This document shows positions 17,752 to 58,825 of a DNA stretch of 64,000 nt, piece after piece. This stretch comes from Acidobacteriota bacterium. Lineage in GTDB: Bacteria; Acidobacteriota; Terriglobia; Acidiferrales; UBA7541. The notes below the pieces were generated by a model. The model worked only from the letters and a program-made list of their open reading frames with translations. It did no database searches and had not been told where the DNA came from. The DNA lies in assembly GCA_003223315.1 (NCBI GenBank), contig QHYR01000253.1, forward strand, positions 53,288 to 117,287, written 5' to 3'. The position numbers and the translations under genes were made by a program. Each line of letters starts with the position of its first letter. Position 1 is the first letter of the stretch.

Positions 17752-19229
17752 TTGAGTGAAGAAAAGAAACAACAAGTCATCGCACTGGGGAAGCTCGGAT
17801 GGCCCTTGCGGCGCATTGAGCAAGCCACTGGTGTCCGTCGAGAAACAGCGAGCGCTTACCTGAAGGCAGCCGGGATCGCGGTGCGACCGCCAGGTTCGTG
17901 GGGACGGCGAGGGCCGGCAAAACCGGCCAACGAGGTGACCACCGACCCGGGTGCGTCACCTTCCGGAAACCAAGGACCACCTGCGGACCGTCCCGACCGG
18001 TCCGCCAGTTCATGTGAACCGTATCGCGAGCTAATCGAGCAGGGACTGGGTCGTGGCCGGAATGCCATGGCCATCTGGCAGGACCTAGTTTCGGATCACG
18101 GCTTTGCGGGCGGCTATCAGGCGGTGAAGCGTTTTGTTCGCAAGCTTCGGGGATCGGAGCTGCCAGCCGCGGCGGGCATCATCCTCACCGCCGCGGGAGA
18201 AGAAGCGCAGGTCGACTACGGCAGTGGCCCGATGGTACGCGACCCGCAGAGCGGCAAGTACCGAGCGCACGCATCTGGGCCGAGCTCCATGAGAAAGCTT
18301 TTCGCCGACTCGGAGGGTGTCCCCGGGTCGTGGTTCTCGACAATCTGAAAGAGGGAGTGGCGGCTCCCGATATCTACGATCCCACCCTCAATCCCCTGTT
18401 TCGGGATGTGCTCGCGCACTACGGCGTGGTGGCGCTGCCTTGCCGGATCAAAGATCCCGATCGCAAAGGGAAAGTGGAGTCCAGCATCGGACACACGCAG
18501 AAAACACCGCTCAAAGGGCTGCGCTTCGAGAGCCTGGAAGAAGCACAGACTTATCTGGATCGCTGGGAACAGCGGTGGGCCGATACGCGCATCCATGGCA
18601 CGACAAAACGGCAGGTCGGGGCCATGTTCGCCGAAGAAAAACCGCACTTACTCCCACTGCCCATCGAACCCTTCCGGTATTACCAATACGGAGAGCGCGT
18701 CGTCCATCTGGACGGTTGCGTGGAGGTCGAGGCCGCCTATTACAGCTTGCCACCAGGATGGATCGGGCGACCGGTGAAGGTGCAATGGGATGCGCTGCAC
18801 GTGCGTATCCTGCATCCGAACACGAACCAACTTCTTCGCGAGCACCTCCGCCGGAAACGCGGCGGGTATCGCATCAAGGAAGAAGATCACCCGAAGAAAA
18901 TGCCGCTGAGCACGGCTCAGCTCTTGCGGCGTGCCGGCCACGCCGGAACCCAGATCGGCAAACTCTGCGAGTTCATCTATCACCAGCAGGGACAGACTGG
19001 CATCCGTCGCATCCTGGGGATCCTCTCCCTGGCGAAGAAATACGGTACGGCAGCGGTCGAAGATGCCTGCACGACCGCTCTCGACATCGGCGTGCATGAA
19101 TACCGCTTCGTTCGCCGTTATCTCGAGCGCCGCCCGCAACTGTTTCTACGACAAATCGATCCCCTGATTCGTGAACTCACCGAGTATCGCGATCTCATCA
19201 ATCTCAAAATCAAGGAGCAACCGGAATGA
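17752..19229 (+). pseudogene. istA: IS21 transposase IstA with internal deletion and frameshift
   Basis: The N-part reads (TTG)SEEKKQQVIALGKLGWPLRRIEQATGV...EAQVDYGSGPMVRDPQSGKYR. The second frame reads WAELHEKAFRRLGGCPRVVVLDNLKEGV...GTTKRQV.... The usual segment between ...GKYR and ...WAELHE is missing, around 18255-18275. Confidence 0.75.
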
Positions 19230-19981
19230 ATCTGATCGAGTTAAATCGCGCCTTACGACAACTGCGTCTCGGCGGCATCGCTGCCGTGCTCGAGACGCGT
19301 CTGCACCAAGCGCAAGCGGAACCGATGGCGCCCATCGATTTCCTCTCCTGTCTGGTGTCCGACGAACTGACTCGTCGCGGCGAGCGGCTGCTGGAACGAC
19401 GACGGAAGCAAGCGCAATTTCGCGACCCGCAGAAAACGCTCGATAACTTCGATTTCAACTTCAACAAGAAAATGAATCGGAGCCTGGTCTTCGACCTGGC
19501 CACGGCCACGTTCGTTGCCCGCCATGAGGACGCTCTGTTTTTAGGTCCGCCCGGCACCGGGAAAAGTCACTTGGCCCAGGCCATCGGACAGGCGGTCATC
19601 GGGCAGGGCTATCGTGTGATTTACCGCGAGGCCCACATCTTGCTCGAGGAAATCTCCGAAGCGGCTCTCGACGGAAAACGAAAAGAGCACATGGAACTGC
19701 TGGCCACCGTGCCCCTGCTCATCATCGATGACTTGGGCATGCGCAAGTTAGCGCCCACAGCAGCAGAGGAGCTGCTGGAGATCGTCATGCGCCGTTACGA
19801 ACGTGCCAGCACGCTGCTAACCTCCAACCGCCCTGTGGAAGATTGGGGCAAACTGCTGGGCGACAGTGCGGCCGTCACCGCCATGCTCGACCGCCTTCTC
19901 CACCATGGCCACATCCTCAAGTACGGGCCGCGGAGCTGGAGGACAAAAACAGACTTGCCCGATCAGGTGAAAACGGGATAA
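19226..19981 (+). CDS. istB: IS21 helper ATPase IstB
   Basis: 251 aa with Walker A GPPGTGKSHLA and Walker B LLIIDDLG. An ATGA overlap links it to the istA stop. Confidence 0.9.
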   Translation: MNLIELNRALRQLRLGGIAAVLETRLHQAQAEPMAPIDFLSCLVSDELTRRGERLLERRRKQAQFRDPQKTLDNFDFNFNKKMNRSLVFDLATATFVARHEDALFLGPPGTGKSHLAQAIGQAVIGQGYRVIYREAHILLEEISEAALDGKRKEHMELLATVPLLIIDDLGMRKLAPTAAEELLEIVMRRYERASTLLTSNRPVEDWGKLLGDSAAVTAMLDRLLHHGHILKYGPRSWRTKTDLPDQVKTG

Positions 19982-32959: not shown

Positions 32960-33034
32960 CTGTCCTCTGTTTCGCGTCCTTGCTCCCTCGGCGCGGGGTG
33001 AAGGGAGCAAGGACTCCCCGAAACAGGAGGACAG
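32960..33034. promoter_or_regulatory. 75-nt imperfect palindrome covering the ardC ribosome-binding site
   Basis: The inner perfect 13-bp stem is GTCCTTGCTCCCT (32976-32988) / AGGGAGCAAGGAC (33002-33014). The outer arms are CTGTCCTCTGTTTCG (32960-32974) / CGAAACAGGAGGACAG (33019-33034) with a 1-nt bulge. AGGAGG at 33025-33030 lies inside the right arm. Confidence 0.6.
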
Positions 33035-33039
33035 AAAAC

Positions 33040-33172
33040 ATGAAAGTCGAACAAGCAAAGCAGATCGCAAGCAAGGCCATCGAGCAACTCAGTCAGGCCC
33101 TCGAAAGGGGCCACAGTGAGACGCTGAGGGAATACCTCGCTGCAATGGCGCGGTTCCATCGCTACAGCTTGC
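33040..33172 (+). pseudogene. ardC: ArdC-like antirestriction protein (ssDNA-binding N-domain + metalloprotease), 5' part, interrupted
   Basis: MKVEQAKQIASKAIEQLSQALERGHSETLREYLAAMARFHRYSL, then unrelated sequence. It continues at 38182. Confidence 0.75.
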
Positions 33173-33339
33173 TATGTGTTCCTCAACATAGAAACGAGAA
33201 TGTGAATAGCTGGACTATGTGAATTCAGCTTCAAGGTCACTCCGGAACGCCCACTCAATTCGACGTATCTGCGTTGCAGCGATTGACATAATCCGGCCAC
33301 ACTTCTCCGGCTCGGCAGCTAGCCGAGAGGAGGAGCGCG

Positions 33340-34257
33340 ATGAATCAGTCCATCACTACCGGTTGTTCCATCCCAGATTTCTGCTCGCAGTATGGAGACT
33401 ATCTTTTTCGTGTTCGCGGATTGGCGGCTTCCACCCGGAAGCTGCATCGACACGTCGTTTGCAGGTTCCTCACGTTTCGATTTCCAGACGGAAAAATCAT
33501 CGTGAGCGACCTTCGGTTCAGTGACCTTGTGGATTTCCTGAAAGAGGAGTTCGCACGGCTATCAAGCCGGGAGACTCAGAGAGCTTGGCTGATGATTCTG
33601 AGAAGTGTGCTCCGGTATCTCTCAGAAGCCGGACAGATTCCCAAAGGCTGGGAAGGAGCTTTACCCAAAGTCGCCAATCATAGTTATGCACGTCTACCAA
33701 AGAATCTCTCGCAGGATCAGGCTAACGCTCTTCGTGCCGCATGCCGCGGGGGAAAACCGAGACACTTTCGCAACCGAGCTCTATTGCTTTTGTTTTTGCG
33801 TCTCGGACTACGCGTGCAGGAGGTGGCTGGTCTTACTCCGAGCGACATCGACTGGAAAAATGGCTACCTGAAAGTTCGCTGCACGAAAACGTACAATGAT
33901 CGCATCCTCCCTCTTCCGCAGGATGTGGGCCGAGGGCTCGTCGCTCATCTACGCAAGTGTCGCAGCCACCCCGAACGAATATTTGAGCCGCTGAGGCCGC
34001 CGTTCACGGCAGAACGCAGCTACACCCATGTTCTCAACTCAATTCGCTACGTTTTTGGGCTGGCGGGTATCAATGACCACGGTGCGCATTCTCTTCGCCA
34101 CACCGCTGCCACAGAGATGGTGAACGCCGGCGCATCTTTCAAGGATGTCGCTGACGTGCTCGGGCATAAGTCCGTCACGACAACATTCATCTACGCCAAG
34201 CTCGATATGAAATCATTGATGCGCGTCGCACTGCCCTGGCCCGGAGGTGCGCGATGA
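33340..34257 (+). CDS. Tyrosine recombinase, first of trio
   Basis: 305 aa, with ...HSLRHTAATEMVNAGASFKDVADVLGHKSVTTTFIYAK. Confidence 0.85.
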   Translation: MNQSITTGCSIPDFCSQYGDYLFRVRGLAASTRKLHRHVVCRFLTFRFPDGKIIVSDLRFSDLVDFLKEEFARLSSRETQRAWLMILRSVLRYLSEAGQIPKGWEGALPKVANHSYARLPKNLSQDQANALRAACRGGKPRHFRNRALLLLFLRLGLRVQEVAGLTPSDIDWKNGYLKVRCTKTYNDRILPLPQDVGRGLVAHLRKCRSHPERIFEPLRPPFTAERSYTHVLNSIRYVFGLAGINDHGAHSLRHTAATEMVNAGASFKDVADVLGHKSVTTTFIYAKLDMKSLMRVALPWPGGAR

Positions 34258-35243
34258 ACATCACGAATTTGTCGGCATACCTGGAAGAGTTCTTGGCGTT
34301 AAAACGTACGATGGCCGAGGCGGAACCGCATTACGATGCGTTCGACCGCAGATCGCTACGCCACAAAGAGAAACTTCTCAGGAACTTCCTTGCTTTCTGG
34401 AATCATCATGGCTGTCCCTGGCCGATTCGTGCCGCACATGTTCTCGATTGGCTAGCTGCCGAGAGTCATCCGCAGCATCCATACCGAGGCCAACATCGTT
34501 TCTATGTCCTGCGGGCATTCTTACAACAAGTACGCGCTTTCGAACCTGAGACGGAAGTGCCAGACAAAATATTCAAGTTCCGACGGCCTCGACGGACACC
34601 CCACATATTCTCTGAGCGCGAAATTGTGCTGTTGATGCGGGCAACGCGGCATCTCCGCCTATTTGAGACTTTTCGTCCGCTGACTCTCCGCACCATGATT
34701 GGGCTGTTGGCGAGCACCGGTCTGCGCATTGGGGAAGTCCTCAGACTCAAAAGCGAGGACGCCAAGTTAACAGCCAATCCGCCCTTTCTGTTGATCTATG
34801 AAACGAAGTTTGGCAAGTCGCGAAATGTTGCTCTGCATCCAACAACGGCCCACCGCTTGAGAAGATATCTCGTCAAACGAGGAGAAGTTTTAGAGAACCG
34901 ACTGGCCAAGACCTTCTTCACAAATGTCTCAGGCAAGCCGCTTGGGTACGCCTCAACCCGCTCCACGTTTCGGAGGTTGCTGAAGCATGCCGGTATTCAG
35001 TCGGTTCCAGGACAGCGAGCTCCGTCGCTTCATTCGTTTAGGCACACGTTCACGGTAACGAGGCTCACAAGATGGCATCTTGAACGGAGAAATGTCCAGG
35101 AGTTGCTACCTCATCTGTCGGTGTACCTCGGCCATGTTGGACCGGAAAACACCTATTGGTACATGACCGCTACACCAGAACTACTCCAAACAGCTGCTGC
35201 GCTCTTCGATCGGCAGCAAAGCCAAGGAGCAGCCAACCCATGA
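34254..35243 (+). CDS. Tyrosine recombinase, second of trio
   Basis: 329 aa, with ...HSFRHTFTVTRL...YLGHVGPENTYWYM. ATGA overlap with the first gene. Confidence 0.85.
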   Translation: MNITNLSAYLEEFLALKRTMAEAEPHYDAFDRRSLRHKEKLLRNFLAFWNHHGCPWPIRAAHVLDWLAAESHPQHPYRGQHRFYVLRAFLQQVRAFEPETEVPDKIFKFRRPRRTPHIFSEREIVLLMRATRHLRLFETFRPLTLRTMIGLLASTGLRIGEVLRLKSEDAKLTANPPFLLIYETKFGKSRNVALHPTTAHRLRRYLVKRGEVLENRLAKTFFTNVSGKPLGYASTRSTFRRLLKHAGIQSVPGQRAPSLHSFRHTFTVTRLTRWHLERRNVQELLPHLSVYLGHVGPENTYWYMTATPELLQTAAALFDRQQSQGAANP

Positions 35244-36238
35244 CCACACCCGCCCTTGTCGGACCATATCTTCAGCTCTTCTTCACGGACCATCTCGTTG
35301 CGCAAAGACGCCTCAGTCCGCAGACGATTGCGAGCTATCGTGATACCTTTCGCTTGCTGCTGCAATTTGTGCACCGTGAAGCGCGTATCGAACCAGCATC
35401 CCTGTCGATACCGGAACTGCATGCGGACAGAATCCTAGATTTCCTCGACTACGTAGAGAAGGAACGCAATAACACAATTGCCTCGCGCAACTTGCGGCTT
35501 ACAGCGATACGCTCGTTTTACCGTATGGTTGCCCTCCGCGACCCGGCGAGTGTGGGAATCGTAACGCGCGTACTCGCGATTCCGCTCAAGCGTGCGGACA
35601 CCAAAGTGCGCTCGTACTTAACGCGCGAAGAAATGGATTCGATCCTTACAGTGTTGGACCGAAACCAATGGTGTGGGCGACGAGACTATGCCTTGCTTCT
35701 CACCATGTACAACACGGGCGCTCGTGTCTCAGAAATATCCTTTCTTCACCAGAATCAAGTGAACTTCGGAACAAAGAGCTACGTTCAGTTGCATGGCAAG
35801 GGACGGAAGGAGCGCTTGATCCCCCTCTGGCCCAGGACTGCCCGAATTTTGAAAGAGTGGTTCCGGGAGACTGGCCCGCGGGATAGTGCCGTCGCATTTC
35901 CCAATGTTCGTGGCGAACCGCTTTCAAGGTTTGCTATCCACCTCTTACTCCGCAAAGCAGCCCATCAAGCTGCCTCCCATTCTGTAAGCCTCAAACGAAA
36001 ACGAGTCTCTCCTCATGTGGTCCGGCACGGGACGGCGATGGCGCTACTCCAGTCGGGTGTGGATATTGCTGTCATCGCGCTCTGGCTGGGCCACGAAAGT
36101 ATAGAAACAACCAACGCCTACTTGCATGCAAATCTCGCGATGAAGGAAAAGGCCCTTGAAAAGGTCCTGCCGATGGATACACCATTCAGACGATTCCATG
36201 CAGACGACCGCTTGTTGGCGTTCTTGGAATCGATCTAA
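35240..36238 (+). CDS. Tyrosine recombinase, third of trio
   Basis: ATG 35240 overlaps the preceding stop as ATGA. MTTPALVGPYLQLFFTDHL...SYRDTF...HVVRHGTAMALLQSGVDIAVIALWLGHESIETTNAYLHA. Confidence 0.85.
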   Translation: MTTPALVGPYLQLFFTDHLVAQRRLSPQTIASYRDTFRLLLQFVHREARIEPASLSIPELHADRILDFLDYVEKERNNTIASRNLRLTAIRSFYRMVALRDPASVGIVTRVLAIPLKRADTKVRSYLTREEMDSILTVLDRNQWCGRRDYALLLTMYNTGARVSEISFLHQNQVNFGTKSYVQLHGKGRKERLIPLWPRTARILKEWFRETGPRDSAVAFPNVRGEPLSRFAIHLLLRKAAHQAASHSVSLKRKRVSPHVVRHGTAMALLQSGVDIAVIALWLGHESIETTNAYLHANLAMKEKALEKVLPMDTPFRRFHADDRLLAFLESI

Positions 36239-36250
36239 CGACATTGACTG

Positions 36251-36272
36251 AGGGGCGCGAAACCGTGCGCCC
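36251..36272 (+). terminator. Possible terminator hairpin after the recombinase trio
   Basis: GGGGCGC-gaaaccgt-GCGCCCC lies 13 nt after the stop. Only a weak T tract (AACTTT) follows. Confidence 0.35.
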
Positions 36273-36431
36273 CAACTTTCATGTCTCGCAGCAGGTTAAT
36301 AGACACTTCGCGACTAGGCGCGGTCTATTTCCCCCAGCCCCGTTGGGGGCCGGCGACGGGCACTTGTCCGGTTAGACTCCACAGGAGTTGGCAAAGACTG
36401 CCCGGGCATTGAATAGCCATCGCGGGGAACA

Positions 36432-37788
36432 CTAGCGCCGAACTTCCAAGCGGTTGAAGGGGTACTCCGCGATCCAGTGGAAGCGGGAATTCGCGAGGAG
36501 GAACTTGTTGCGGTCAACTAAACGGAGTTGCATGTGTATCATGTGGTTGTCCACCTCGCCATCGAGGGTCAGTTGATCCGGCGCGGGGCGTTGGAAGGTG
36601 AACTTGGCCCTCCAGTCCTTATCGTTGGTCTTTGTTAGCGCGATGGTTCTGTCGTTGAGGTTGATCGTGGCGCCGTAGCCGACGAACGAATCGTCCATGC
36701 GCTGAAAGTTTACGCTGGCGGGAAAGTCAAAGATGACGCGACGCCAGCGGTCATAATCGGTGAGGAGCGGCGAGCGGACTTGACCGTTAACGGAGAGCTG
36801 GTCCACGTTCCAGATGCCGTAGAACGACGATTTGGGACGTCCGCCGCCGTAAGCGTACCAAATGCTCCAACTCGTGTAGATATTCGTTCCCACAAGATAG
36901 ATAGCAAAGATGAGCTGCGCGCCCAGCGCGATACGGTTAGCGCGGCGCGTGCGGAAGAGTTGCGGCTGCGCGGAAGAGTTGCGGCTGCATGGAAGGTTCG
37001 ACGGGCCGATTTAGGAAGAAGAAGTTAACGAGACGCGGAAGCTCGGGAACAAGAAGGAACAAACACATCAGGATCAGGTGGAACGAGAGGAGTTTTACGG
37101 GGACGTCATAGGTCATGTTGAGCAGGAACACGTATGTCAGGTCGGCCAGGCAAATTAGCATCCCGAGCATCGTCGCACCAGGGACAATCAACAGAATTCC
37201 ACCCAGCATTTCAGCGCATCCGGCGAAGATTTCATAGACAGGAGAGGCACCGACGAAATTCCAGAGGACGCCCATAGGCGAGAAGTTGCCGAAAGGCTCG
37301 ACGAATCTAGTGAGAAATGGGAAGGGCATTTGTTGTGGAAAGACCTTAACCATTCCGTAGGAGAACATTGCGGAGGCAAGGGCAAAGCGAATGAAAAGGC
37401 GAAACCATTTGTCCAGCGTGACGTAATTGTCGCGCTGGCGGTCAAGAACAGACCAGATGCCGGTTGCCAGCACCACAAGGACCAGCAGGCAGAATGTTTC
37501 CACCCAATTGAAGGTTTTGTCGCCGCTTCCACTGCCCGTGTAAACCAGTGGGTGCGTGATGCCGAAAATATGCGCGGCGGTCCAGAGGGTGATCTGGCGC
37601 ATTGGCCACAGCGTAGCGGGGTCAACCGAAAACTTGGTGATGAGAAACAGTCCGCCGAGGATTTGAGAGGTGAGGCAGTACAGTCCAAAGTACGAAAAGC
37701 AGAAGCGGGAGGTGAGCCGCTTCACGAAGCTCCAATGCGGAACCTGCGTTTCTCGCGAGCGTTCTTCGATCTGGCTCTGAGTGCCCAT
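36432..37788 (-). pseudogene. DoxX-like polytopic membrane protein with C-terminal soluble domain, frameshifted by a 19-bp tandem duplication
   Basis: ORFs 36937-37788 (membrane part) and 36432-36893 (C-domain) fuse in frame (...PQLFRTRRANRIALGAQLIFAIYLVGTNIYTSW...) if one copy of the 19-bp duplication is deleted. Confidence 0.7.
36951..36988. repeat. Perfect 19-bp tandem duplication GCGGAAGAGTTGCGGCTGC x2
   Basis: 36951-36969 is identical to 36970-36988. Because 19 is not a multiple of 3, the duplication creates the stop at 36937. Confidence 0.95.
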
Positions 37789-38181
37789 GGGACCTCCATG
37801 ACCGGACCAAGTGACAACAGTCAGTCTACATCACAGCTACGGACGCCATAACTGCCGAGAAACGCGCAAACAGGCCAAGTGAAATCGAGCCGAATGCCCC
37901 AGAGGTCCCGTTGCGGAAGGTGAAGAAATCGATGGTTCCGCACGATGGGTCCTCGCCGACGCGGCAGTGTTGATTGACCGCTCGCTGCTACTTCGCGGAA
38001 AGTCGATGTGCTAGAAAAGATCGCCGATAAGTATGGCTCTACAACTCTCGGGTTCATCTCACAGATTGCCAACGTTCTTGAGATCCCTCTCACTACGTTG
38101 ACCCTGGAGCGCAAAAAGATGCACGCTACCTTCCTTTTCTTTCTCCAATTAACATAGTAGGGCAATTCACATTCAGCTTGC

Positions 38182-38849
38182 ACAACATTATGCTCATCGC
38201 ATCCCAGAGGCCAGACGCTACCCACGTCGCCGGATTTCAGACCTGGAAGCAACTTGGACGTTTCGTAAAGAAGGGCGCAAAGGGAATCTTGATTCTTGCG
38301 CCGGTGCTGCTGCACAAGGACGCGGAGGCATCCGACCGAGAGGAAGGCACCGAAAGGCCAGTGGTGCACTTTCGCGCGGTTTACGTGTTCGATGTTGCCG
38401 ATACAGACGGTAAGCCACTGCCCGAACTCGGAAATGCTGACGGCGATCCGTCCGGCCACACGGAACGGCTAAAGGAATTCATCGCGAGCCGTGGAATCCA
38501 ACTTGAATACTCAGACACGATCTATCCGGCGCAGGGTCAATACTCACCTGGAAAGATTGTGCTGCTGCCCGGTCAATGTGCGGCAGAGGAATTTGCTACG
38601 TTGGCCCATGAGACGGGACACGCGCTCCTTCACGGCCAGGATCGACGCAGCTAGACGACGAAGCGTGTCCGTGAGACAGAGGCGGAAGCCGTTGCATTTG
38701 TCGTCTGCGAAGCCATCGGCCTCAAAGCCCAAAATTCCGCTGACTACATCCAACTCTATTCCGGCGACAAGGAGACGCTGGCAGAATCGCTGGAGCACGT
38801 ACAGCGTGCCAGCGCAGAGATTCTTGCCGCTATCACGCCGACCGACTAA
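38182..38849 (+). pseudogene. ardC: ArdC-like protein, 3' part, with additional in-frame TAG
   Basis: HNIMLIASQRPDATHVAGFQTWKQLGRFVKKGAKGILILAP...LAHETGHALLHG (HExxH). TAG at 38652-38654 is followed, in the same frame, by ...RETEAEAVAFVVCEAIGL... to TAA 38847-38849. Confidence 0.75.
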
Positions 38850-41710: not shown

Positions 41711-42010
41711 ATGTCGAATGCCAGACGGGTAAACATGGTTCATCGCTCGCTCTCACGGCCCCTCACCATCCTCGGAGCCGAGAGGAAACTGTTTTTCTTT
41801 GCGATGTGCGTGGGCGCGGGAACCTTCAATCTGCTCGACAGCTTGTTAGGCGGGCTGCTGATCTTCTTTCTGCTCTACTTCGTCGCGCGTTGGGCGACGC
41901 AGACCGACCCGCAGATTCTGCGGTTCCTGCTCACGGCGGCGAACCTTCGCACCCAATACGACCCGGCAAAATTCAGCCCGGTCTCGATACGCAGGATCAG
42001 TGATGCTTAA
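41711..42010 (+). CDS. virB3: T4SS VirB3/TrbD family protein
   Basis: 99 aa, with ...LSRPLTILGAERKLFFFAMCVGAGTFNLL.... It overlaps the virB4 start. Confidence 0.75.
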   Translation: MSNARRVNMVHRSLSRPLTILGAERKLFFFAMCVGAGTFNLLDSLLGGLLIFFLLYFVARWATQTDPQILRFLLTAANLRTQYDPAKFSPVSIRRISDA

Positions 42011-44450
42011 ACTTCAACGGATTTTCAAGAATTACCAGGAAACCGGCGCATTCAACGAACAGGTGAACCTGTATGGGTTTGTCGATTCCAATGTTTTTCT
42101 CACGAAATCAGGGGAACTCGGCGTCATCCTCGAAGTGCGCGGCGTTGACTACGAGTGCCTCGATGACGCCTCGATTGACGGCCTCACGAAGAGGCTCGAA
42201 TCCGCACTGAAACTGTTCGACGAAAACTACCGCATCTATCAATACCTCTTCAAACGAAACAACGAAGCTATCCCCTACAAACTCTATGGCAATCCCGTCG
42301 TAGACACCGCCATCAAAAACCGCATCGCGTACCTGGCTGGCAAGGCCGACACCCTCTTCTCGCTTTCGGTTTATTACGTGATCCTCTTCGATGGTTCACG
42401 TCCGAAGCGCAAGATCGGAAGCGCGCTCCAGAACTTTCCCGAGCAGCCAGCGAAGGCGCTCGGCGAGCTCTGGGCGTACTTCTCAACCAGAAAACAGGTT
42501 GTCTTCCTCGACCGGGAGATCTCGAAGGCCCAGGCCACGCTACTTCAGAAGGCCGAGAGTTTCATCCTGCAGGTCAGCGACTTCCTGACGGTCCGGCTCC
42601 TCGATAAGCAGGAAGCCTTCCGAATCCTGAAAAAGACGCTCAACTTCGCCCCGGACAAGCTCGAACTGGCGAAACTCAAATACGACACCTTTCTTGACTA
42701 TTATCTATGCGAGTCGCATCTCGAATGCCACCGGGGACATCTCCGTCTCGACGATTACTACGTCAAGGTCCTCACGCTCAAGGAGCCATCCGCGCAGAGT
42801 TTTCCCCTCATCTTCAAGCGCCTACTGGAAGTCCAGGCGAACTACTACGTCGTCACTGAATGGAAGAAGGAAGACTCGGGCAAAACCCGGCGGATCATTC
42901 AGGCCAAGCGCCGCCACTTCCACAACACCAAGCGTTCGTTCTTCAGCCAAGTCAATCTGAACGACGCCGCACCTCAGGATGTTCTTCTCGATGATTCAAA
43001 GGAGTCGCAAGTCCGGGAACTCGGCGAGGGCATCAAGGAGATCGAACTTCATGGGAATTATTTCGGTCAATTCTCACTCACCGTCGTCATCTACGACCTC
43101 GACCCCACCAAAGTGAACCGGGCGTGTGCGGAGTTTTACAAGGTCTTCAGCGTTCACGATGCGCAGCTTTACGAAGAGAAATATAACCTGCTGAACGCAT
43201 TCCTCGCGGCGGTTCCCGGCAATCACATCTTCAACCTTCGCTACCTCTACCTGCTCAACACGAACTACGCCGACTTTTCGTTCCTCTTTACCCTCCACTG
43301 TGGCGAGCCTCGCAACCGGCACCTCCGGCAAGAATATCTCGCGGTTCTTGAGACGAATCACCACACGCCGTACTTCCTGAACCTTCATTATCGGGATGTC
43401 GCGCACACGATGATTCTGGGACGGACCGGCGCGGGCAAATCATTCCTGCTGAACTTCTTGATCACGAACCTCCAGAAGTACGCGCCGCATACGTTCATCT
43501 TCGACCTCGGCGGTAGCTTTGAAAGCCTCACGCATCTTTTCGGCGGCTCCTACGTTCGTGTCGGACTCGAATCCGAGGATTTCAGACTCAACCCATTCTC
43601 ACTGCCGCCTACGAAAGAGAACCTCGATTTCCTAGCGCTCTTTGTGAAGGTTTTGCTTCAGGGCTCCAGGACGCCAGAGATTGATCCCGCGACAGAGCGC
43701 GACCTCTACCACCAGATCGAGAATCTTTATGCGGTCGATCCCGCATTGCGCACGCTCGGTGTGCTCACGAATACGCTCGGCCATGAAATGTCCGACCGGT
43801 TGGCGAGATGGACTCGCGGCGGGCAATTCGGCTTTCTCTTCGACAATTCGGAAGACACGATCTCGTTCTCACAGTTCCAGTGTTTTGACTTTCAGGGGAT
43901 GAGCCAGTACCCGGAACTCCTTGAACCGCTGCTCTTCTATATCCTCCACCGGGCCAACGCCGTCATCGCCGACCGGCAGATCACCCAAGTCTTCAAAGCC
44001 TTCTTCATCGATGAAGCATGGGTGTTCCTGAAGAACCCGAGCATCCAGCGGTACGTTGTGGAAGCGCTGAAGACCTGGAGGAAGCACAACGCCGCGATGG
44101 TGCTCTCGACGCAGTCGCTCGACGAACTGCGGCGCTCGGACATCCTCGACGTGATTATCGAAAGCTGCGCCACAAAAATCTTCCTAGCGAATCCTGACAT
44201 GGACCGCGAACTTTACCGCAGGCAGTTCCACCTGAACGAAAACGAAGTCGAGCTGATTTCGAACCTGATCCCGAAACAGCAGTTCCTCATCAAGACGCCC
44301 GAGCTGGCCAAAGTTGCCAACCTCACCGTGGACCGGAAGAGCTACTGGCTCTACACGAACGATCCCTATGACAACCGGAAGCGGAGGGAAGCCTTCGAGA
44401 CCTATGGTTTCGAGCGAGGACTCGAAGTACTGGCAGGAGAGCACGCATGA
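42000..44450 (+). CDS. virB4: T4SS ATPase VirB4/TrbE
   Basis: 816 aa with Walker A GRTGAGKSFLLNFL and Walker B-like FFIDEAW. Confidence 0.9.
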   Translation: MMLKLQRIFKNYQETGAFNEQVNLYGFVDSNVFLTKSGELGVILEVRGVDYECLDDASIDGLTKRLESALKLFDENYRIYQYLFKRNNEAIPYKLYGNPVVDTAIKNRIAYLAGKADTLFSLSVYYVILFDGSRPKRKIGSALQNFPEQPAKALGELWAYFSTRKQVVFLDREISKAQATLLQKAESFILQVSDFLTVRLLDKQEAFRILKKTLNFAPDKLELAKLKYDTFLDYYLCESHLECHRGHLRLDDYYVKVLTLKEPSAQSFPLIFKRLLEVQANYYVVTEWKKEDSGKTRRIIQAKRRHFHNTKRSFFSQVNLNDAAPQDVLLDDSKESQVRELGEGIKEIELHGNYFGQFSLTVVIYDLDPTKVNRACAEFYKVFSVHDAQLYEEKYNLLNAFLAAVPGNHIFNLRYLYLLNTNYADFSFLFTLHCGEPRNRHLRQEYLAVLETNHHTPYFLNLHYRDVAHTMILGRTGAGKSFLLNFLITNLQKYAPHTFIFDLGGSFESLTHLFGGSYVRVGLESEDFRLNPFSLPPTKENLDFLALFVKVLLQGSRTPEIDPATERDLYHQIENLYAVDPALRTLGVLTNTLGHEMSDRLARWTRGGQFGFLFDNSEDTISFSQFQCFDFQGMSQYPELLEPLLFYILHRANAVIADRQITQVFKAFFIDEAWVFLKNPSIQRYVVEALKTWRKHNAAMVLSTQSLDELRRSDILDVIIESCATKIFLANPDMDRELYRRQFHLNENEVELISNLIPKQQFLIKTPELAKVANLTVDRKSYWLYTNDPYDNRKRREAFETYGFERGLEVLAGEHA

Positions 44451-52599: not shown

Positions 52600-54483
52600 G
52601 TGATCGCCATGCGTGCCCCCCATGCCTTCCTGAGCTTCCAGTACCTCTACAACATCGTCCTGTTCACAACGCCGTTCATGGTCTTTTCAGCCGTGCTTTC
52701 GGGCCTCTACATCTTCACGTTGAAAGTCCGTCGGCACATCTCGCCGGGCCGCCTCCCCCGGTATCCCGACCCACGCAAAAGGAACGAGCTTTATCTCACG
52801 GTCGGCGAGGTTCACAACCCTCGCAAACCGGGACCATCCGAGACCCCGCGATGGCTCACCATTCCCGAACGCGGATTGTTCACCGGGATTGCGATTTTCG
52901 GTGCTGTGGGAAGCGGCAAGACGAGCTGCTGCATGTACCCGTTTGCCGAGCAGACTCTTGCCTACAAAGCAGCGGACAAAGAGGAGCGAATCGGCGGTCT
53001 CATCCTCGAAGTCAAAGGAGACTTTTGCCGCAAGGTGAAGGGCATTCTCGACCGCCACGAACGGGGTGAGGATTACATCGAAATCAGCCTCGATTCCGAA
53101 TACCGATACAATCCCCTCCACAACGACCTGGATGCCTACGCGCTGGCCTTCAGCATCGCGTCCCTGTTGAACAACCTCTTTGGCCGTGGCAAGGAACCTT
53201 TCTGGCAGCAGGCGTACACGAACCTCGTCAAGTTCATCATCCTTCTTCATAAGGTCGCCTACAACTATGTGACCCTTTTCGATGTCTACCAGTGCGCCAT
53301 CTCGCCAACGATTCTGGAAGAGAGGATTCGCGAGGCCGAAGAGATCGTCTTGGGACGCCACTATGTGGCCATCAAGCCAGATGTCTTTGGAGCGCGCACG
53401 GCGGACCTCGCTGGACATGGATTCGTTCACGATCCCAAAGAAGACCGCTATCTCGCCCCGGCCACCCCGCAACTCCGCGAGACGCTGCAAAACAGGGGAA
53501 TCGGCTTCGAGTCCCGGAGCGTCCTCGACCCCGCGCAAGCCGACGCCGACAAGCTCGAACAACTGGAAGCCGTCAAGCGTTGGTTCAATGACGACTGGAA
53601 ACGCATCGAGCCGAAGCTGCGGACCTCCATCGTCGAGGGAATCTCCGTCTTCCTTTCTCTCTTCGACGACAACCCGAAAGTGAAGAAAGTCTTTTGCCCG
53701 AAGAAGGAGTGCTACGACCCCGCAAAGAACGTCAACAATATCTATGGCAAGCCCCTTCCTTCATTCTCCTGGCTCATTGAAAAGGGCAAGGTTTGCGCCC
53801 TCAATTTTCCCATCGGGATGAACCCAGGACTCGCGAAGGCTCTCGGCGTCATGATGAAGCTCGATTTTGAACGCGCCGTCCTCAACCGCGTTCCTGAAAT
53901 CGAAGCTCACCCAGAGCGGTATTTCAGGCAGGTCCTCTTCCTCTGCGATGAGTACCAGCACTTCGCAACCGTGGGCGAAAACGACCCCACAGGCGACGAG
54001 AAATTCTTCAGCCTCTCGCGCCAGCCGAAATGCATCCCCATCATCGCCACGCAGAGCATCAGTTCGCTCAAATCCGCCCTGCCGGGGGATAGCTGGCGCA
54101 CGCTCTTGCAAACTTTCCGCACGAAGATTTTCCTCGCGCTTTCGGATGATTTCTCCGCTCGCACTGCGAGCGAGCTTTGCGGACGGGAAGACAAGCTCAA
54201 GGTCAGCTACAACCTCTCGGAGAGCGGCCACGACGCCAGAGTGAGTCTGCTCACCGGGAAGGCCGTCTCACACAAGGCCAACATCACGGCATCGAAGAGC
54301 TACAACACGCAAAGCGACTACCGCTTCGACATGAAGACATTCACCGAGTTGCGCAACGCGCAATCGGTGACGATTGCCTACGACGGCTTGAATCCGATGC
54401 CGCCCATGTTCTGCTACCTGAAGCCCTACTTCAACGATCCGAACAAGTCTTACTTCAAGCAGCTCGCGGAAGGAGGCCTGTGA
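52600..54483 (+). CDS. virD4: Type IV coupling protein VirD4/TraG family (5' end uncertain; see finding)
   Basis: Walker A is FGAVGSGKTSCCMYPF. The 627-aa product is a large NTPase, with ...LFLCDEYQHFAT... as a Walker B-like motif. A likely first TM segment lies in another frame at 52487-52603. Confidence 0.85.
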   Translation: MIAMRAPHAFLSFQYLYNIVLFTTPFMVFSAVLSGLYIFTLKVRRHISPGRLPRYPDPRKRNELYLTVGEVHNPRKPGPSETPRWLTIPERGLFTGIAIFGAVGSGKTSCCMYPFAEQTLAYKAADKEERIGGLILEVKGDFCRKVKGILDRHERGEDYIEISLDSEYRYNPLHNDLDAYALAFSIASLLNNLFGRGKEPFWQQAYTNLVKFIILLHKVAYNYVTLFDVYQCAISPTILEERIREAEEIVLGRHYVAIKPDVFGARTADLAGHGFVHDPKEDRYLAPATPQLRETLQNRGIGFESRSVLDPAQADADKLEQLEAVKRWFNDDWKRIEPKLRTSIVEGISVFLSLFDDNPKVKKVFCPKKECYDPAKNVNNIYGKPLPSFSWLIEKGKVCALNFPIGMNPGLAKALGVMMKLDFERAVLNRVPEIEAHPERYFRQVLFLCDEYQHFATVGENDPTGDEKFFSLSRQPKCIPIIATQSISSLKSALPGDSWRTLLQTFRTKIFLALSDDFSARTASELCGREDKLKVSYNLSESGHDARVSLLTGKAVSHKANITASKSYNTQSDYRFDMKTFTELRNAQSVTIAYDGLNPMPPMFCYLKPYFNDPNKSYFKQLAEGGL

Positions 54484-56537: not shown

Positions 56538-57650
56538 ATGTCGGTATACAAACGCGGGAGTCTCTGGTGGTACAAATTCCAATTTCAGGGACGCTCGATT
56601 CGAAAACCTACAAAGTTCACAAATAGAACGGCAGCCCTGCGAGCTGAGGCTAAGCACAAGGCAGATCTACTCGACCGGCGCGCTGGCCTGTCACAGAAAA
56701 AGATCGCACCAAAGTTTGAAGAATACGTGAAGGAGTTCTTAGCTTGGTCCAAGCAGCACCACAGGCCAAAGACGACAGCACTCCACAGCACAAACTGCGA
56801 CACGTTGCTGCGCTTTTTCAAAGGCCATTGGCTGGACGAAATCGACCAGGCCGCAGTGGAGCGCTACAAATCTGATCGCCTAAAAGAGGATCGCCGCAAT
56901 GCTGACGACGGGAGCAAGGTCACCGGAGCGACGGTCAATCGGTCGCTGACCACACTGAAGTTGATGTTCGGGCGAGCTGAGAAATGCGGTTTTGGCGTCT
57001 CCAATCCGGTTCGTGGTGTAGCCTATTTGCCAGAGTCTACTGGTCGCATCCGGGTCGTCAGCTTCCAGGAAGAGCTAGCCTATCTTTCAAAAGCCAGCCA
57101 GCCGTTACGAGACATCGCACAGACCATCCTAGACACAGGGCTGCGGCCAGAGGAAGTATTTCGAATTCGAGTTGAGAACATCGACTTCGCCGCGCGCACC
57201 ATCTTCAACCCATTTGGAAAGACCAAAGCCGCGCGCCGGACCGTCACGATGACCGAGGCTGTTTGGACCGCGCTGAAGCGACGAGCGAAGATGGCCAAAG
57301 GAAGCTATGTATTTCCGTCTGAGAAACACCCGGATCGACCCATAGGCTGCGTGCGCAAGGGGCACAACGCCGCAATACGCCGTGCTGGTATCAAGCCGCA
57401 TTTTGTCTTGTACGACATGCGTCACACATTTGCAACGCGAGCGGTAACGGCTGGAGTCGATCTCCCAACTCTGAGCGCAATGCTGGGCCACACTTCAATA
57501 ACGATGACCATGCGATACGTTCATCCGGCAGCAGAACAGAAACGGTTGGCCGCTGCGAAGCTGGAGAGCTTCCGCATCAACGGTCTAATTGAGGCCGCAA
57601 GCGAACAAGCAGTGGGTACAAATATGGGCACAGTCGCTCAGGTCAACTAA
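56538..57650 (+). CDS. int: Tyrosine site-specific integrase
   Basis: MSVYKRGSLWWYKFQFQGRSIRK..., ...LRPEEVFRI... and ...YDMRHTFATRAVTAGVDLPTLSAMLGHTSITMTMRYVHP. Confidence 0.9.
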   Translation: MSVYKRGSLWWYKFQFQGRSIRKPTKFTNRTAALRAEAKHKADLLDRRAGLSQKKIAPKFEEYVKEFLAWSKQHHRPKTTALHSTNCDTLLRFFKGHWLDEIDQAAVERYKSDRLKEDRRNADDGSKVTGATVNRSLTTLKLMFGRAEKCGFGVSNPVRGVAYLPESTGRIRVVSFQEELAYLSKASQPLRDIAQTILDTGLRPEEVFRIRVENIDFAARTIFNPFGKTKAARRTVTMTEAVWTALKRRAKMAKGSYVFPSEKHPDRPIGCVRKGHNAAIRRAGIKPHFVLYDMRHTFATRAVTAGVDLPTLSAMLGHTSITMTMRYVHPAAEQKRLAAAKLESFRINGLIEAASEQAVGTNMGTVAQVN

Positions 57651-57862: not shown

Positions 57863-58825
57863 CTAGCAGGAGAAGGGGTCTGGGGAAGGGGACGGCATTT
57901 GAGTCTCCTTCCCCAGCAGTCCTTTAGAAGTCTTTTTGTTGTTCTCTTCGTTCTCAAAAAACTCCATCGTCGCGCTTCGAGATGCGGCCTGGCACTCAGC
58001 CTTTCGCTCGAATTCTTCCGGAGATCGATAGCCCAACGCCGAGTGCAACCGCTGCCGATTGTAATACCGCTCCATGAACTCTTCGATGTTCGTCCGTAAA
58101 TGTTCTAGGTTCTCGTACTTGTTGGTGTAGATTTCTTCCCGCTTCAGCGTCTTGATGAAGCTTTCGCAGCTGGCATTGTCGTAGGGGTTCGCCGGCCGAC
58201 TCATGCTCGGAATCATGTGGTACTTCTCGAGGATGGCTATATATTCCGCGCGAGCGTATTGAAACCCCCGATCCGAGTGATGCACCAGGCCGGGTTCGGG
58301 CTGTCGGCACTCGATGGCTTGCTCCAGCGCCCCGATCGTTAGTCGAATGGCCAAAGTTCGATCCAGTGCCCAGCCCACCACTTTGCGTGAGAACCCATCG
58401 AGGATCACCGCCAAGTAGACAAATTCCGCCTTCAGCCGAATGTAGGTGATGTCCGCTACCCACAGCTGATTGATCCCGCGCAGCTTCATCCGAGCAGCTA
58501 AGTTCAGATATACCTCGAACTTGTGGTTCGAGTCCGTGGTGACCTTGAACCGCTTCGGCTGTAGGGCCAGCAGGTTATCTTCCCGCATGATCCGCACCAC
58601 CCGTTTGTGGTTTATCTGCATTCCTCGACGGCGCAGCTCCGCGGTGATTCGCCGATAGCCGTAGCGGCGGCGATGCTCCAAGGCAATTTGTTGGATCGCA
58701 GATCGCACTTCCATCTCTTCCTCAACAGGTTGCTGTTCCTGCAGCGACCGGTAAAAGCCCCGGCGGCTGACCGGCACCATCTGACACATGCGCCCGATAC
58801 TCAGGCTGCCTTGCAATGACATCAC
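57863..58825 (-). CDS. IS3 transposase OrfB (DDE integrase core), probably expressed as an OrfAB fusion by -1 frameshift
   Basis: ...WVADITYI...HHSDRGFQY...NASCESFIKTLKRE.... The -1 frame is open from the T TTT TTC heptamer (reverse complement of 58909-58915) in orfA. Confidence 0.85.
   Translation of the reverse strand: MMSLQGSLSIGRMCQMVPVSRRGFYRSLQEQQPVEEEMEVRSAIQQIALEHRRRYGYRRITAELRRRGMQINHKRVVRIMREDNLLALQPKRFKVTTDSNHKFEVYLNLAARMKLRGINQLWVADITYIRLKAEFVYLAVILDGFSRKVVGWALDRTLAIRLTIGALEQAIECRQPEPGLVHHSDRGFQYARAEYIAILEKYHMIPSMSRPANPYDNASCESFIKTLKREEIYTNKYENLEHLRTNIEEFMERYYNRQRLHSALGYRSPEEFERKAECQAASRSATMEFFENEENNKKTSKGLLGKETQMPSPSPDPFSC

Follow-up and report, generated by a model that had tools for sequence, protein, structure and literature searches.

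A recombinase-in-trio element in the ardC gene of a soil acidobacterium and its relatives at the same codons

Recombinase-in-trio (RIT) elements were named around 2009-2010 and are present in many phyla; to our knowledge, there is no explanation to date for their need for three recombinases. Short terminal inverted repeats (about 28-34 bp) and a palindrome at one end have been described for them (PMC3414803, PMC10214605), and their target specificity, excision, and mode of movement are rated as untested (PMC10214605, Table 1). Here we analyse an element of this type that interrupts the ardC gene in a stretch of 64,000 nt (hereafter the window; positions 53,288-117,287 of contig QHYR01000253.1, assembly GCA_003223315.1) from a soil acidobacterium of the Terriglobia, the sequence of which was also found in soil metagenomes. 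The insert is a genuine RIT placed cleanly in ardC, and its main value comes from the comparison with its family. We consider it probable, at roughly 0.8, that the element was integrated by conservative site-specific recombination, catalysed by tyrosine recombinases, into a fixed site at codons 43-44 of ardC.

Among the proteobacterial RITs, ritA2B2C2 of Cupriavidus metallidurans CH34 is located in radC of CMGI-2/Tn6054, a Bordetella petrii GI3 trio likewise in radC, and ritA1B1C1 in tnpA of IS66 (PMC2864759, PMC3414803). From the same reports, two related RITs are known in radC of integrative conjugative elements (ICEs), and further ones within genes for transposases. The window element resembles the RITs of these reports in its overlapping A-B-C trio with ATGA, its short inverted repeats, its palindrome at one end, and its host gene on an ICE or other mobile element, and movement is experimentally undemonstrated in both cases. 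It differs in its acidobacterial host, in its ardC target at a defined codon, and in a cargo of 1.9 kb between ritC and the right inverted repeat. No link between RITs and ardC was found in our literature search.

In elements of the Tn916/CTnDOT type, the overlap of 6-7 bp (coupling sequences) need not match and the junctions mix donor and target bases. Excision and integration via an overlap of 6-7 bp are likewise proposed for the RIT, which is small, non-conjugative, and codon-specific, whereas Tn916/CTnDOT are large and self-transmissible, use one integrase and Xis, and have a loose target. With Tn554 and the SEs (PMC10214605) the element shares a strong target specificity, the lack of a real target duplication, and a 6-bp segment that is carried from the old site to the new one. 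However, Tn554 and the SEs combine two active recombinases with a helper devoid of catalytic function (TnpC; Tfp and Srap) and insert in a single orientation. In the window RIT, all three recombinases look active and the inverted repeats go together with a central palindrome; its relatives occur in both orientations. The GInts, as summarised in PMC10214605 from PMC5385486, are integrative elements as well, with several tyrosine-recombinase genes lined up at one end; according to that summary they differ in needing four genes, among them one catalytically dead recombinase-fold protein and ginD, which is not a recombinase, and counterparts of neither are present in the window insert.

The element and its assignment to the RIT group

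The interrupted gene and the parts of the insert are the following (positions in the window):

33040-33171, plus strand: N-terminal part of ardC, codons 1-44 (..RFHRYSL), with ATG at 33040 and codon 44 (TTG) ending at 33171, taken from the sequence and the list of open reading frames (ORFs)
33165-33171, plus strand: O1, the left repeat of 7 bp, CAGCTTG, composed of the third base of the Tyr codon and of the Ser-Leu codons
33172-33191, no strand: H, 20-bp palindrome CTATGT-GTTCCTCA-ACATAG (6-8-6), in full CTATGTGTTCCTCAACATAG
33192-33198, minus strand: O2, inverted third copy of the core, AAACGAG (reverse complement CTCGTTT, i.e., C and Ser-Phe codons)
33199-33225, plus strand: IR-L, left inverted repeat (IR) with two direct ATGTGAAT motifs (33200-33207 and 33217-33224)
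33340-34257, plus strand: ritA, tyrosine recombinase of 305 aa (R158, HSLRH 250, Y285), dN/dS 0.13-0.14
34254-35243, plus strand: ritB, tyrosine recombinase of 329 aa (R158, HSFRH 260, Y303), dN/dS 0.21-0.24
35240-36238, plus strand: ritC, tyrosine recombinase of 332 aa (R162, HVVRH 259, Y294), dN/dS 0.17-0.19
36432-37788, minus strand: cargo, a single gene for a membrane protein (445 aa after repair) that is broken into ORFs of 283 and 153 aa
37959-38146, no strand: conserved right-end segment, the part outside the IR, 85-91% identical in relatives with different cargo
38147-38173, minus strand: IR-R, right inverted repeat with ATTAACAT at 38148-38155 and ATTCACAT at 38165-38172
38174-38180, plus strand: O3, right 7-bp repeat CAGCTTG
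38181-38849, plus strand: C-terminal part of ardC, codons 45-266 (HNIMLIASQ.. HETGH ..), with TAA at 38847-38849

The split of ardC, which a preliminary description of this DNA had recognised, is located after codon 44 (33171), and the reading frame is taken up again at 38181 with CAC AAC ATT (HNI..). The junctions had been placed at 33172 and 38182, each one base off due to an ambiguous shared C. Removal of the insert indeed restores an in-frame ardC, as had been proposed: the rejoined protein of 266 aa matches the Pfam family ArdcN over residues 7-114, hence across the junction (45.9 bits, cut-off 22.6), with a weak match to Peptidase_M78 over its HETGH, and homologous ardC genes run uninterrupted across the reconstructed junction. 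Both borders carry CAGCTTGC (33165-33172 and 38174-38181). Since CAGCTTG occurs only 7 times on the plus strand of the 64-kb window, its pair at the exact borders is not due to chance. The identical copies that had been reported as direct repeats of 8 bp are thus present, but the repeat proper comprises 7 bp. On the left, H begins with the eighth base, C 33172, which is paired with G 33191; the C on the right belongs to the His codon, and in the relative L017 the two sides have C and G, respectively, which makes the agreement of the eighth base in the window coincidental. The element unit of approximately 5.0 kb can be given as 33172-38180 or, equivalently, as 33165-38173.

Along the window the order is ardC-N, O1, H, O2, IR-L, ritA-ritB-ritC, cargo, IR-R, O3, ardC-C. 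The IR arms (33198-33225 versus 38147-38174) span 28 nt and are 82% complementary. Of the termini described earlier as ATGTG ends with an imperfect IR of 27 nt, the IR stands with its 28 nt, while the left end has to be redrawn as O1, palindrome, inverted core, and IR. The motif seen twice at the left end is correct: ATGTGAAT starts at 33200 and 33217 and nowhere else on the same strand of the window, in which the pattern of H has a single match, too.

The three recombinase genes are adjacent on the same strand and overlap by ATGA at 34254 (ritA/ritB) and 35240 (ritB/ritC), as initially reported for the tandem and within the 4-8 bp expected of a RIT. All three proteins match Phage_integrase (E between 1e-20 and 1e-30) and keep the catalytic R, HxxR, and H...Y residues. 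Ratios of nonsynonymous to synonymous substitution rates (dN/dS) of 0.13-0.24 in comparison to L011 and L021 point to purifying selection on all three rit genes. Apart from them, no transposase is encoded in the insert according to its ORFs, Pfam, and NCBIfam. NCBIfam contains no Rit-specific model, and its Xer and integron matches to the recombinases are all far below the cut-offs.

RitB has 4811 relatives at E ≤1e-20, and its plasmid matches represent tyrosine-recombinase trios in Rhizobiales, Burkholderiales, Sphingomonadales, and Dinoroseobacter. The trios of Dinoroseobacter shibae pDSHI03 and Cupriavidus oxalaticus, which display overlaps of 4 bp as well, served as the two references on which the assignment of the positions A, B, and C rests; D. 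shibae DFL 12 is mentioned among the hosts of RITs (PMC3414803). An all-against-all BLASTP with both trios gave 102-389 bits for proteins of the same position and at most 66 bits for proteins of different positions, and RitA, RitB, and RitC are approximately 35-40% identical to the proteobacterial RitA, RitB, and RitC. Trio, orthology by position, catalytic residues, and the 28-nt IRs, which are found together with a 20-bp palindrome at one end, identify the insert as a RIT element, in agreement with the first description. As further marks of RITs, two core-binding domains in RitA and an extra C-terminal helix in RitC have been published (PMC8138268). In the window RitA, only about 120 residues precede the catalytic domain and two core-binding domains are therefore doubtful; 38 residues follow the catalytic Tyr in RitC compared to 26 in RitB and 20 in RitA. 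Two related organisations were considered and are excluded due to the lack of a non-catalytic partner. The Tn554 type comprises two tyrosine recombinases (one of them large) and the non-recombinase TnpC and does not need terminal inverted repeats; gene three of the window trio, by contrast, encodes a complete tyrosine recombinase, and no TnpC-like ORF occurs. In case of the GInt/SE type, all three proteins have catalytic residues, a fourth conserved gene is missing, and the cargo varies among copies.

Insertion at the same codons and exchange of the core segments

The comparison set comprised about 110 related loci (L numbers), with 80 genome loci recovered with a RitB profile; the wider RitB family belongs overwhelmingly to the Acidobacteriota. 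About 20 independent copies are located at the same Ser-Leu/Phe codons in divergent ardC genes, namely codons 43-44 within a FH(R/N)YS(L/F) motif. Both junctions were mapped for 11 copies at this site (12 with L035), and 17 N-terminal junctions are available besides that of L052, a copy at a secondary site; the split is found at residue 44/45. Using tblastn with ArdC, the 44/45 split was located in L034-L043, L057, L058, L069, and L082, whose RitB proteins are 55-61% identical to that of the window, and L032 (RitB 66% identical) was recognised by its flank motif only.

The element core is 87.5-92% identical to L011, L017, L024, and L021 over about 3 kb, whereas the ardC flanks are 64-83% identical or unalignable, and RitB-like proteins of 88-90% identity sit in other contexts. 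L011/L014 represent an element of 8.3 kb with different cargo and HipA/HTH (helix-turn-helix) neighbours, and L017/L019 one of 9.4 kb with ABM, EthD, hydrolase, SDR, and sigma-factor genes as cargo; their cores are 91-92% identical to the window over 3067 nt, with flanks that are 64-72% identical or unalignable. In L011 and L017, the left flank closes with ..FHRYSL or ..FHNYSI and the right flank opens with HN.. or GN... The rejoined target of L017 is an ArdC-like protein, 30% identical to the window ArdC, in which the ArdcN match covers the junction. An identical RitB protein occurs in two contexts, L017 and L021.

The rit genes point in the direction of ardC in 11 independent copies (window, L011, L017, L024, L034, L037, L039, L041, L043, L057, and L058) and in the opposite direction in at least 7 (L021, L031, L032, L035/L082, L036, L038, and L040). 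Irrespective of this, the consensus order along ardC is ardC-N, O1 (6-7 nt), H, O2 (7 nt), IR ... IR, O3, ardC-C. The 20-bp palindrome H, with the family pattern [C/T]TATGT-N8-ACATA[G/A], occurs in the 17 tabulated copies at ardC codon 44 and in the non-ardC copy L052, always beside the N-terminal part of ardC in either orientation of the body, and the C-terminal junction invariably reads IR-O3-ardC-C without H. H travels with the element lineage and not with the target. Relative to H, L035 has its entire body reversed; IR-R, which can be told apart, and the unique sequence adjoining it are reversed with it, so that the turning points are O2 and O3 and do not lie inside the IRs.

Some relatives show additional rearrangements. 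In L031 of a Candidatus Sulfotelmatobacter metagenome-assembled genome (MAG), the closest genome match (92-94% identical, opposite orientation), ritA is broken by an insertion of approximately 1.8 kb (1071-2845). The ritA of L017-L020 is split into ORFs of 83 and 222 aa, and ritC of L010 has apparently been deleted. L023 (ERZ27253151) combines a left flank and recombinases of the P0004 type in one ardC allele with cargo, right end, and flank identical to L017; it is a probable assembly chimera or natural recombinant of two RITs and was left out of the comparison of O1 and O3. Within the same ardC gene, approximately 10 codons downstream of the RIT site, L035 (6329-8936) and L082 carry an element whose ORF of about 700 aa encodes a large serine recombinase.

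In the relatives, O1 follows the local ardC allele (CAGCCTG, CAGCATC, CAGCTTC, TTCCTTC). In 7 of the 12 copies with both junctions, O1 and O3 agree in all 6 nt of their Ser-Phe/Leu codons. The other five differ at 6 positions in total, all of which are synonymous third codon positions; by our arithmetic, the chance of this is (1/3)^6, or about 0.001. The segments (O1 / O3) read:

L036: AGCTTC / AGCTTT
L037: AGCTTC / AGTTTC
L043: AGCTTT / AGTTTC
L057: TCCTTC / TCTTTC
L035: AGCTTC / AGCTTT

The reverse complement of O2 consists of Ser-Phe/Leu/Trp codons in 19 out of 19 rows of the ardC-44 family (18 in ardC and L052). Frequently it belongs to the other Ser codon family than O1 and O3 of the same copy, as in the window (TCG-TTT versus AGC-TTG), in L034 (AGC-TTC versus TCC-TTC), and in L035 (TCC-TTC versus AGC-TTY), and point mutation thus does not explain the O2 sequence. 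The O2 of the window (CTCGTTT) equals O1 of L032.

Uninterrupted ardC alleles, which the preliminary description had proposed to search for, were found. Four metagenome contigs contain the window's exact flanks of 13 and 20 nt around a single 7-mer, which is CTCGTTG in L111, CTCGTGG in L112/L113, and CTCACTG in L114; of these, CTCGTGG recurs as O2 in L017 and CTCGTTG as O3 in L021. In runs X1-X3, a further uninterrupted ardC contig, about 90% identical, reads ..CGCTAC-TCGC-TGCACAAC.. (RYSLHN; TAC TCG CTG CAC) and covers 33002-33165 and 38179-38303. As other contigs diverge upstream of 33002, a related ICE without RIT coexists in these runs. Within one Granulicella MAG, the elements of L034 and L035/L082 are 99.78% identical over 3149 bp and are located in different ardC alleles in opposite orientation. 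Here, GTCCTTC is the O3 beside IR-R in L034 and the internal O2 beside IR-R in L035, and AAGCTTC is internal beside IR-L in L034 and constitutes the core at the new junctions of L035.

The comparison of copies and empty sites shows that the O segments are exchanged with target alleles and carried along. Whether the repeat is a duplication or a shared crossover core had been left open in the preliminary description. The differences between O1 and O3, the sequence of O2, and the empty sites decide this for a segment of 6-7 bp with a crossover or coupling role and against a fill-in duplication, as far as junction sequences can tell. No earlier description of this att anatomy (O-H-O-IR ... IR-O) and of the core exchange was found in a search that did not cover Ricker et al. 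2013 (Plasmid 70:226).

On the basis of these observations we propose the following course. Recombination of O1 with O3 would excise a circle and restore ardC, and the coding sequence would survive the excision, as every O variant seen encodes Ser-Leu/Phe/Trp. The junction of the circle would consist of IR-R, O, H, O2, and IR-L, in case of the window ..AATTCACATT CAGCTTG CTATGTGTTCCTCAACATAG AAACGAG AATGTGAAT.., and would represent a large palindrome of nearly two-fold symmetry that is asymmetric only in the 8-nt spacer of H. On either side of H it would thereby offer an [IR arm]-O-[H arm] site, the two being equivalent. If one of them recombined with the target [ardC N-arm]-O-[ardC C-arm], H would be joined to the N-arm and the IR to the C-arm; the choice of either core would then yield both orientations with H always on the N-terminal side, and the unused core would keep the sequence of an earlier target. 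O2 and O3 are mutually inverted, and their recombination would flip the body in place, which would account for the mixed orientations of H spacer and body (window versus L024; L036/L038 versus L040). The predicted junction contains six TATGT/ATGTG motifs, two per IR and two as the arms of H, and it is tempting to speculate that RitA, RitB, and RitC divide IR motif, H arm, and target arms among them. With a conserved and dispensable ICE gene as target, the element would travel along with conjugation.

Alternative explanations and the state of the window copy

If the repeat of 7-8 bp were a true target-site duplication, arising from a staggered cut and fill-in of the DDE-like kind at a loosely chosen target and located in ardC by chance, O1 and O3 would be expected to agree, as they do in the window, L011, and L017, where they track the local ardC allele. 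About 20 independent copies at the same codon of divergent ardC genes, the purely synonymous differences between O1 and O3 in five copies, and the other alleles carried by the third, inverted core copy render this explanation hardly credible. In addition, the three tyrosine recombinases are the only recombination enzymes encoded, and we know of no tyrosine recombinase that makes fill-in duplications. Very improbable, too, is a single ancient insertion into ardC that has been inherited vertically with the ICE, with the shared position due to common descent and the trio an immobile passenger. The exact copy of the window at one site only, its decayed ardC (TAG), and its frameshifted cargo are in line with such a history. 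However, it would have to accommodate cores that are 87.5-92% alike next to ardC flanks of 64-83% identity or no alignability and different neighbour genes, the occurrence of both orientations, one RitB sequence in two contexts (L017 and L021), the 99.78% identical element in two ardC alleles of one MAG, and purifying selection on all three rit genes.

The conservation of Ser-Leu/Phe/Trp in every O variant, by which excision would be scarless at the protein level, and the repeated hits in ardC would also suit an element that is kept as a reversible switch, comparable to a prophage switch, whose excision restores ardC when anti-restriction is needed, e.g., during transfer. We regard this as distinctly unlikely, given that no polymorphism of empty and filled sites of the same ICE was seen in the soil-run contigs and that the nonsense mutation of ardC is fixed in six contigs, according to which ardC has long not been needed; moreover, the sister clades reside in transposase and DUF6908 genes, which hitch-hiking fits better than regulation. 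Unlikely to a lesser degree is the interpretation of H as a separate site of the loxP/dif type, with crossover in its 8-nt spacer, for the resolution of dimers or cointegrates or for inversion. The 6-8-6 layout of H is that of a classical core site, its spacer lies either way round with respect to the ends (window versus L024; L036/L038 versus L040), and in Granulicella rosea H is situated at both ends of one copy and absent from the other. Against this, H is always found between O1 and O2 at the N-terminal junction of ardC, and both O copies flanking H contain sequence derived from the target, by which the crossovers are located beyond H.

Several points weigh against integration by site-specific recombination at codons 43-44 as proposed here. 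Among the four uninterrupted alleles found with fixed flanks and a free 7-mer, all of which are at most 89% identical to the window, the exact empty site CAGCTTG is absent, and it is likewise not present in the contig of about 90% identity. Heterology in the middle of the overlap stops many tyrosine recombinases, and the tolerance implied here is an assumption. No circle or excision product of the window element was detected in the assembled contigs (Logan) of eight soil runs, in which the depth of the element equals that of its flanks and the only joint across the element is the 90% identical, uninterrupted ardC paralogue. A joint in L034 that goes back by 3170 was considered as a circle junction and rejected, as it runs into reverse-complemented ardC-N and represents an insertion in the opposite orientation of the L035 type. 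An identical RitB is encoded on 18 contigs (10 displayed), all of which show the same insertion site or the element only. Furthermore, most relatives derive from metagenome assemblies, which can be chimeric. Finally, L052 (RitB 67% identical; at 8921) is inserted in a gene other than ArdC, whose product, a secreted or membrane protein, has no Pfam match; the specificity is, by this example, directed to a DNA sequence and not absolute. The target of L052, ..CGCAACTAT-TCGCTG, resembles the ardC site, so that recognition concerns the DNA sequence and not the gene.

Near-identical copies at different sites occur in the family (L034 versus L035/L082; RitB of L017 and L021), whereas the window copy is known from a single site. 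The 18 contigs with identical RitB thus give no sign of recent movement of the window copy, and due to this single site, the nonsense codon in ardC, and the frameshift in the cargo, this copy is probably old rather than recent and may no longer be mobile. Its ritABC genes and both ends are intact despite the nonsense codon and the frameshift. The nonsense codon is an in-frame TAG at 38652-38654 in the C-terminal part of ardC, where L111/L114 have GAG and L021 has GAA. It is fixed in 6 out of 6 metagenome contigs of the locus and therefore ardC has decayed since the insertion. An intact frame of ArdcN followed by a zincin-like HExxH does not exist in the window, the gene being split by the insert and interrupted by TAG, and by these features ardC is a pseudogene.

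Sister clades, cargo, and genomic context

Two sister clades share the O-H-O-IR layout. In the clade of L044-L049 and L055 (RitB about 53% identical; Granulicella), H is a perfect palindrome and the element is located at ..PFY|W in a DUF6908 gene beside ardC; the rejoined DUF6908 protein matches the whole Pfam model. In the clade of L050, L051, and L053 (RitB about 51% identical), the target is an IS1380-type transposase gene (DDE_Tnp_1_4) at ..FFHGY|YG. Furthermore, a second, distant RIT family (RitA, RitB, and RitC 28-40% identical) occurs in the same ardC genes at the HExxH codons. One of its members is located in L041 (3831-7351) after the HELSH codons (residue ~191) with a TCTCAC repeat and an H of its own, and one in L043 (12530-17146) with the same HELSH break and H. 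For the second-family trios of L042 (near the residue-191 break) and L035 (2447-5266, C-terminal part of ardC), the evidence consists of their location and not of junction sequence. By these positions, two RIT lineages target two different conserved motifs of ardC.

The C. oxalaticus RIT contains an H-like TTATGC-N8-GCATAA (6-8-6), followed by 7 nt and the IR; a flanking repeat was not found for it, and the ends of the D. shibae RIT were not recognisable. On one contig of G. rosea DSM 18704, two RITs approximately 128 kb apart (L047/L048, also L055) carry H at both ends and no H, respectively, and the copy with H at both ends is flanked by two inverted, intact copies of ardC. This looks like a chromosomal inversion by recombination of two inverted RIT copies.

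From here a broader picture can be drawn, which we put forward as tentative, with the odds somewhat below even: RITs in general would be codon-precise, site-specific integrative elements with an excised double att of IR, core, 20-bp palindrome, core, and IR, of which either core can be used, and their clades would be tuned to coding motifs of mobile elements. If so, the use of either core would explain both orientations, the inversion in place, and why the element itself documents its two most recent target alleles; the targets of the RitABC clades would comprise ardC codons 43-44, the HExxH codons of ardC, DUF6908, the IS1380-type transposase, radC, and tnpA of IS66; and the binding of three kinds of half-sites (IR motif, palindrome arm, and target arms) could explain the three recombinases.

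The locus and its relatives offer a defined target, exact ends, a predicted circle junction, and natural filled and empty alleles for experiments, for which G. rosea DSM 18704, G. paludicola DSM 22464, and Granulicella sp. L60 are cultured carriers from the sister clades. In Acidobacteriota that are abundant in soil, an anti-restriction gene of conjugative elements is repeatedly disabled by small recombinase elements, and these repeated ardC knockouts bear on the spread and competition of layered mobile elements. Codon-specific integrases that tolerate core variation may be of interest for builders of recombinase tools.

The cargo differs from its preliminary annotation. A perfect tandem duplication of 19 bp, GCGGAAGAGTTGCGGCTGC in two copies (36951-36988), shifts the frame of the cargo gene; after removal of one copy, the ORFs of 283 and 153 aa fuse into a membrane protein of 445 aa, to which no family was assignable. 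The segment of about 350 bp that had been listed as unassigned beside the cargo forms a single frameshifted gene with it. Pfam and NCBIfam give no family match for the broken ORFs, and the label of a DoxX-like gene does not hold: the repaired protein scores 13.5 bits against DoxX (PF07681) at a cut-off of 23.6 (E = 0.12). In runs X1-X4, short contigs join 36482 to 36562, omitting 79 bases of the cargo gene and with ambiguous letters between, and probably stem from a diverged homologue of the cargo.

The cargo region of about 1.9 kb is situated between ritC and the right-end segment with IR-R, and relatives carry 5-6 kb. As the smallest family members (L034, L039, and L041) measure only 3.16 kb, the window element has gained this 1.9 kb. 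At the right end, about 220 bp (alignment 37959-38177) are conserved at 85-91% between copies with different cargo. A 49-aa ORF therein was considered as an excisionase-like gene and dismissed, as it is disrupted in L011 and most changes that distinguish L017 from the window are non-synonymous. The segment is probably non-coding and cis-acting, and it may represent a cis-acting site or an RNA.

Around the element, the following genes were located:

about 32.3 kb, minus strand: HTH regulator
39.2-39.9 kb, right of the interrupted ardC: N6/N4 DNA methylase
42000-44450: VirB4
52600-54483: coupling protein
56538-57650: tyrosine integrase

After the methylase, genes follow in the order TrbC, VirB3, VirB4, VirB9, VirB10, coupling protein, RepB primase, tyrosine integrase, and IS3-type transposase, with the CagX/VirB9 and TrbI/VirB10 genes between VirB4 and the coupling protein. 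Type IV secretion genes, coupling protein, and integrase thus form one block (42-57.7 kb), as is expected of an ICE. To the left of 31 kb extends an exopolysaccharide/exosortase (PEP-CTERM) region with an IS21-type insertion. With this region on the left and the conjugation block with the integrase on the right, gene content places ardC at the left margin of an integrated conjugative element that measures approximately 26 kb. The IS21-type element of the exopolysaccharide region spans 18317-19981 (IstB at 19226-19981), and the IS3-type transposase gene (rve, 57863-58825) is situated just past the ICE integrase.

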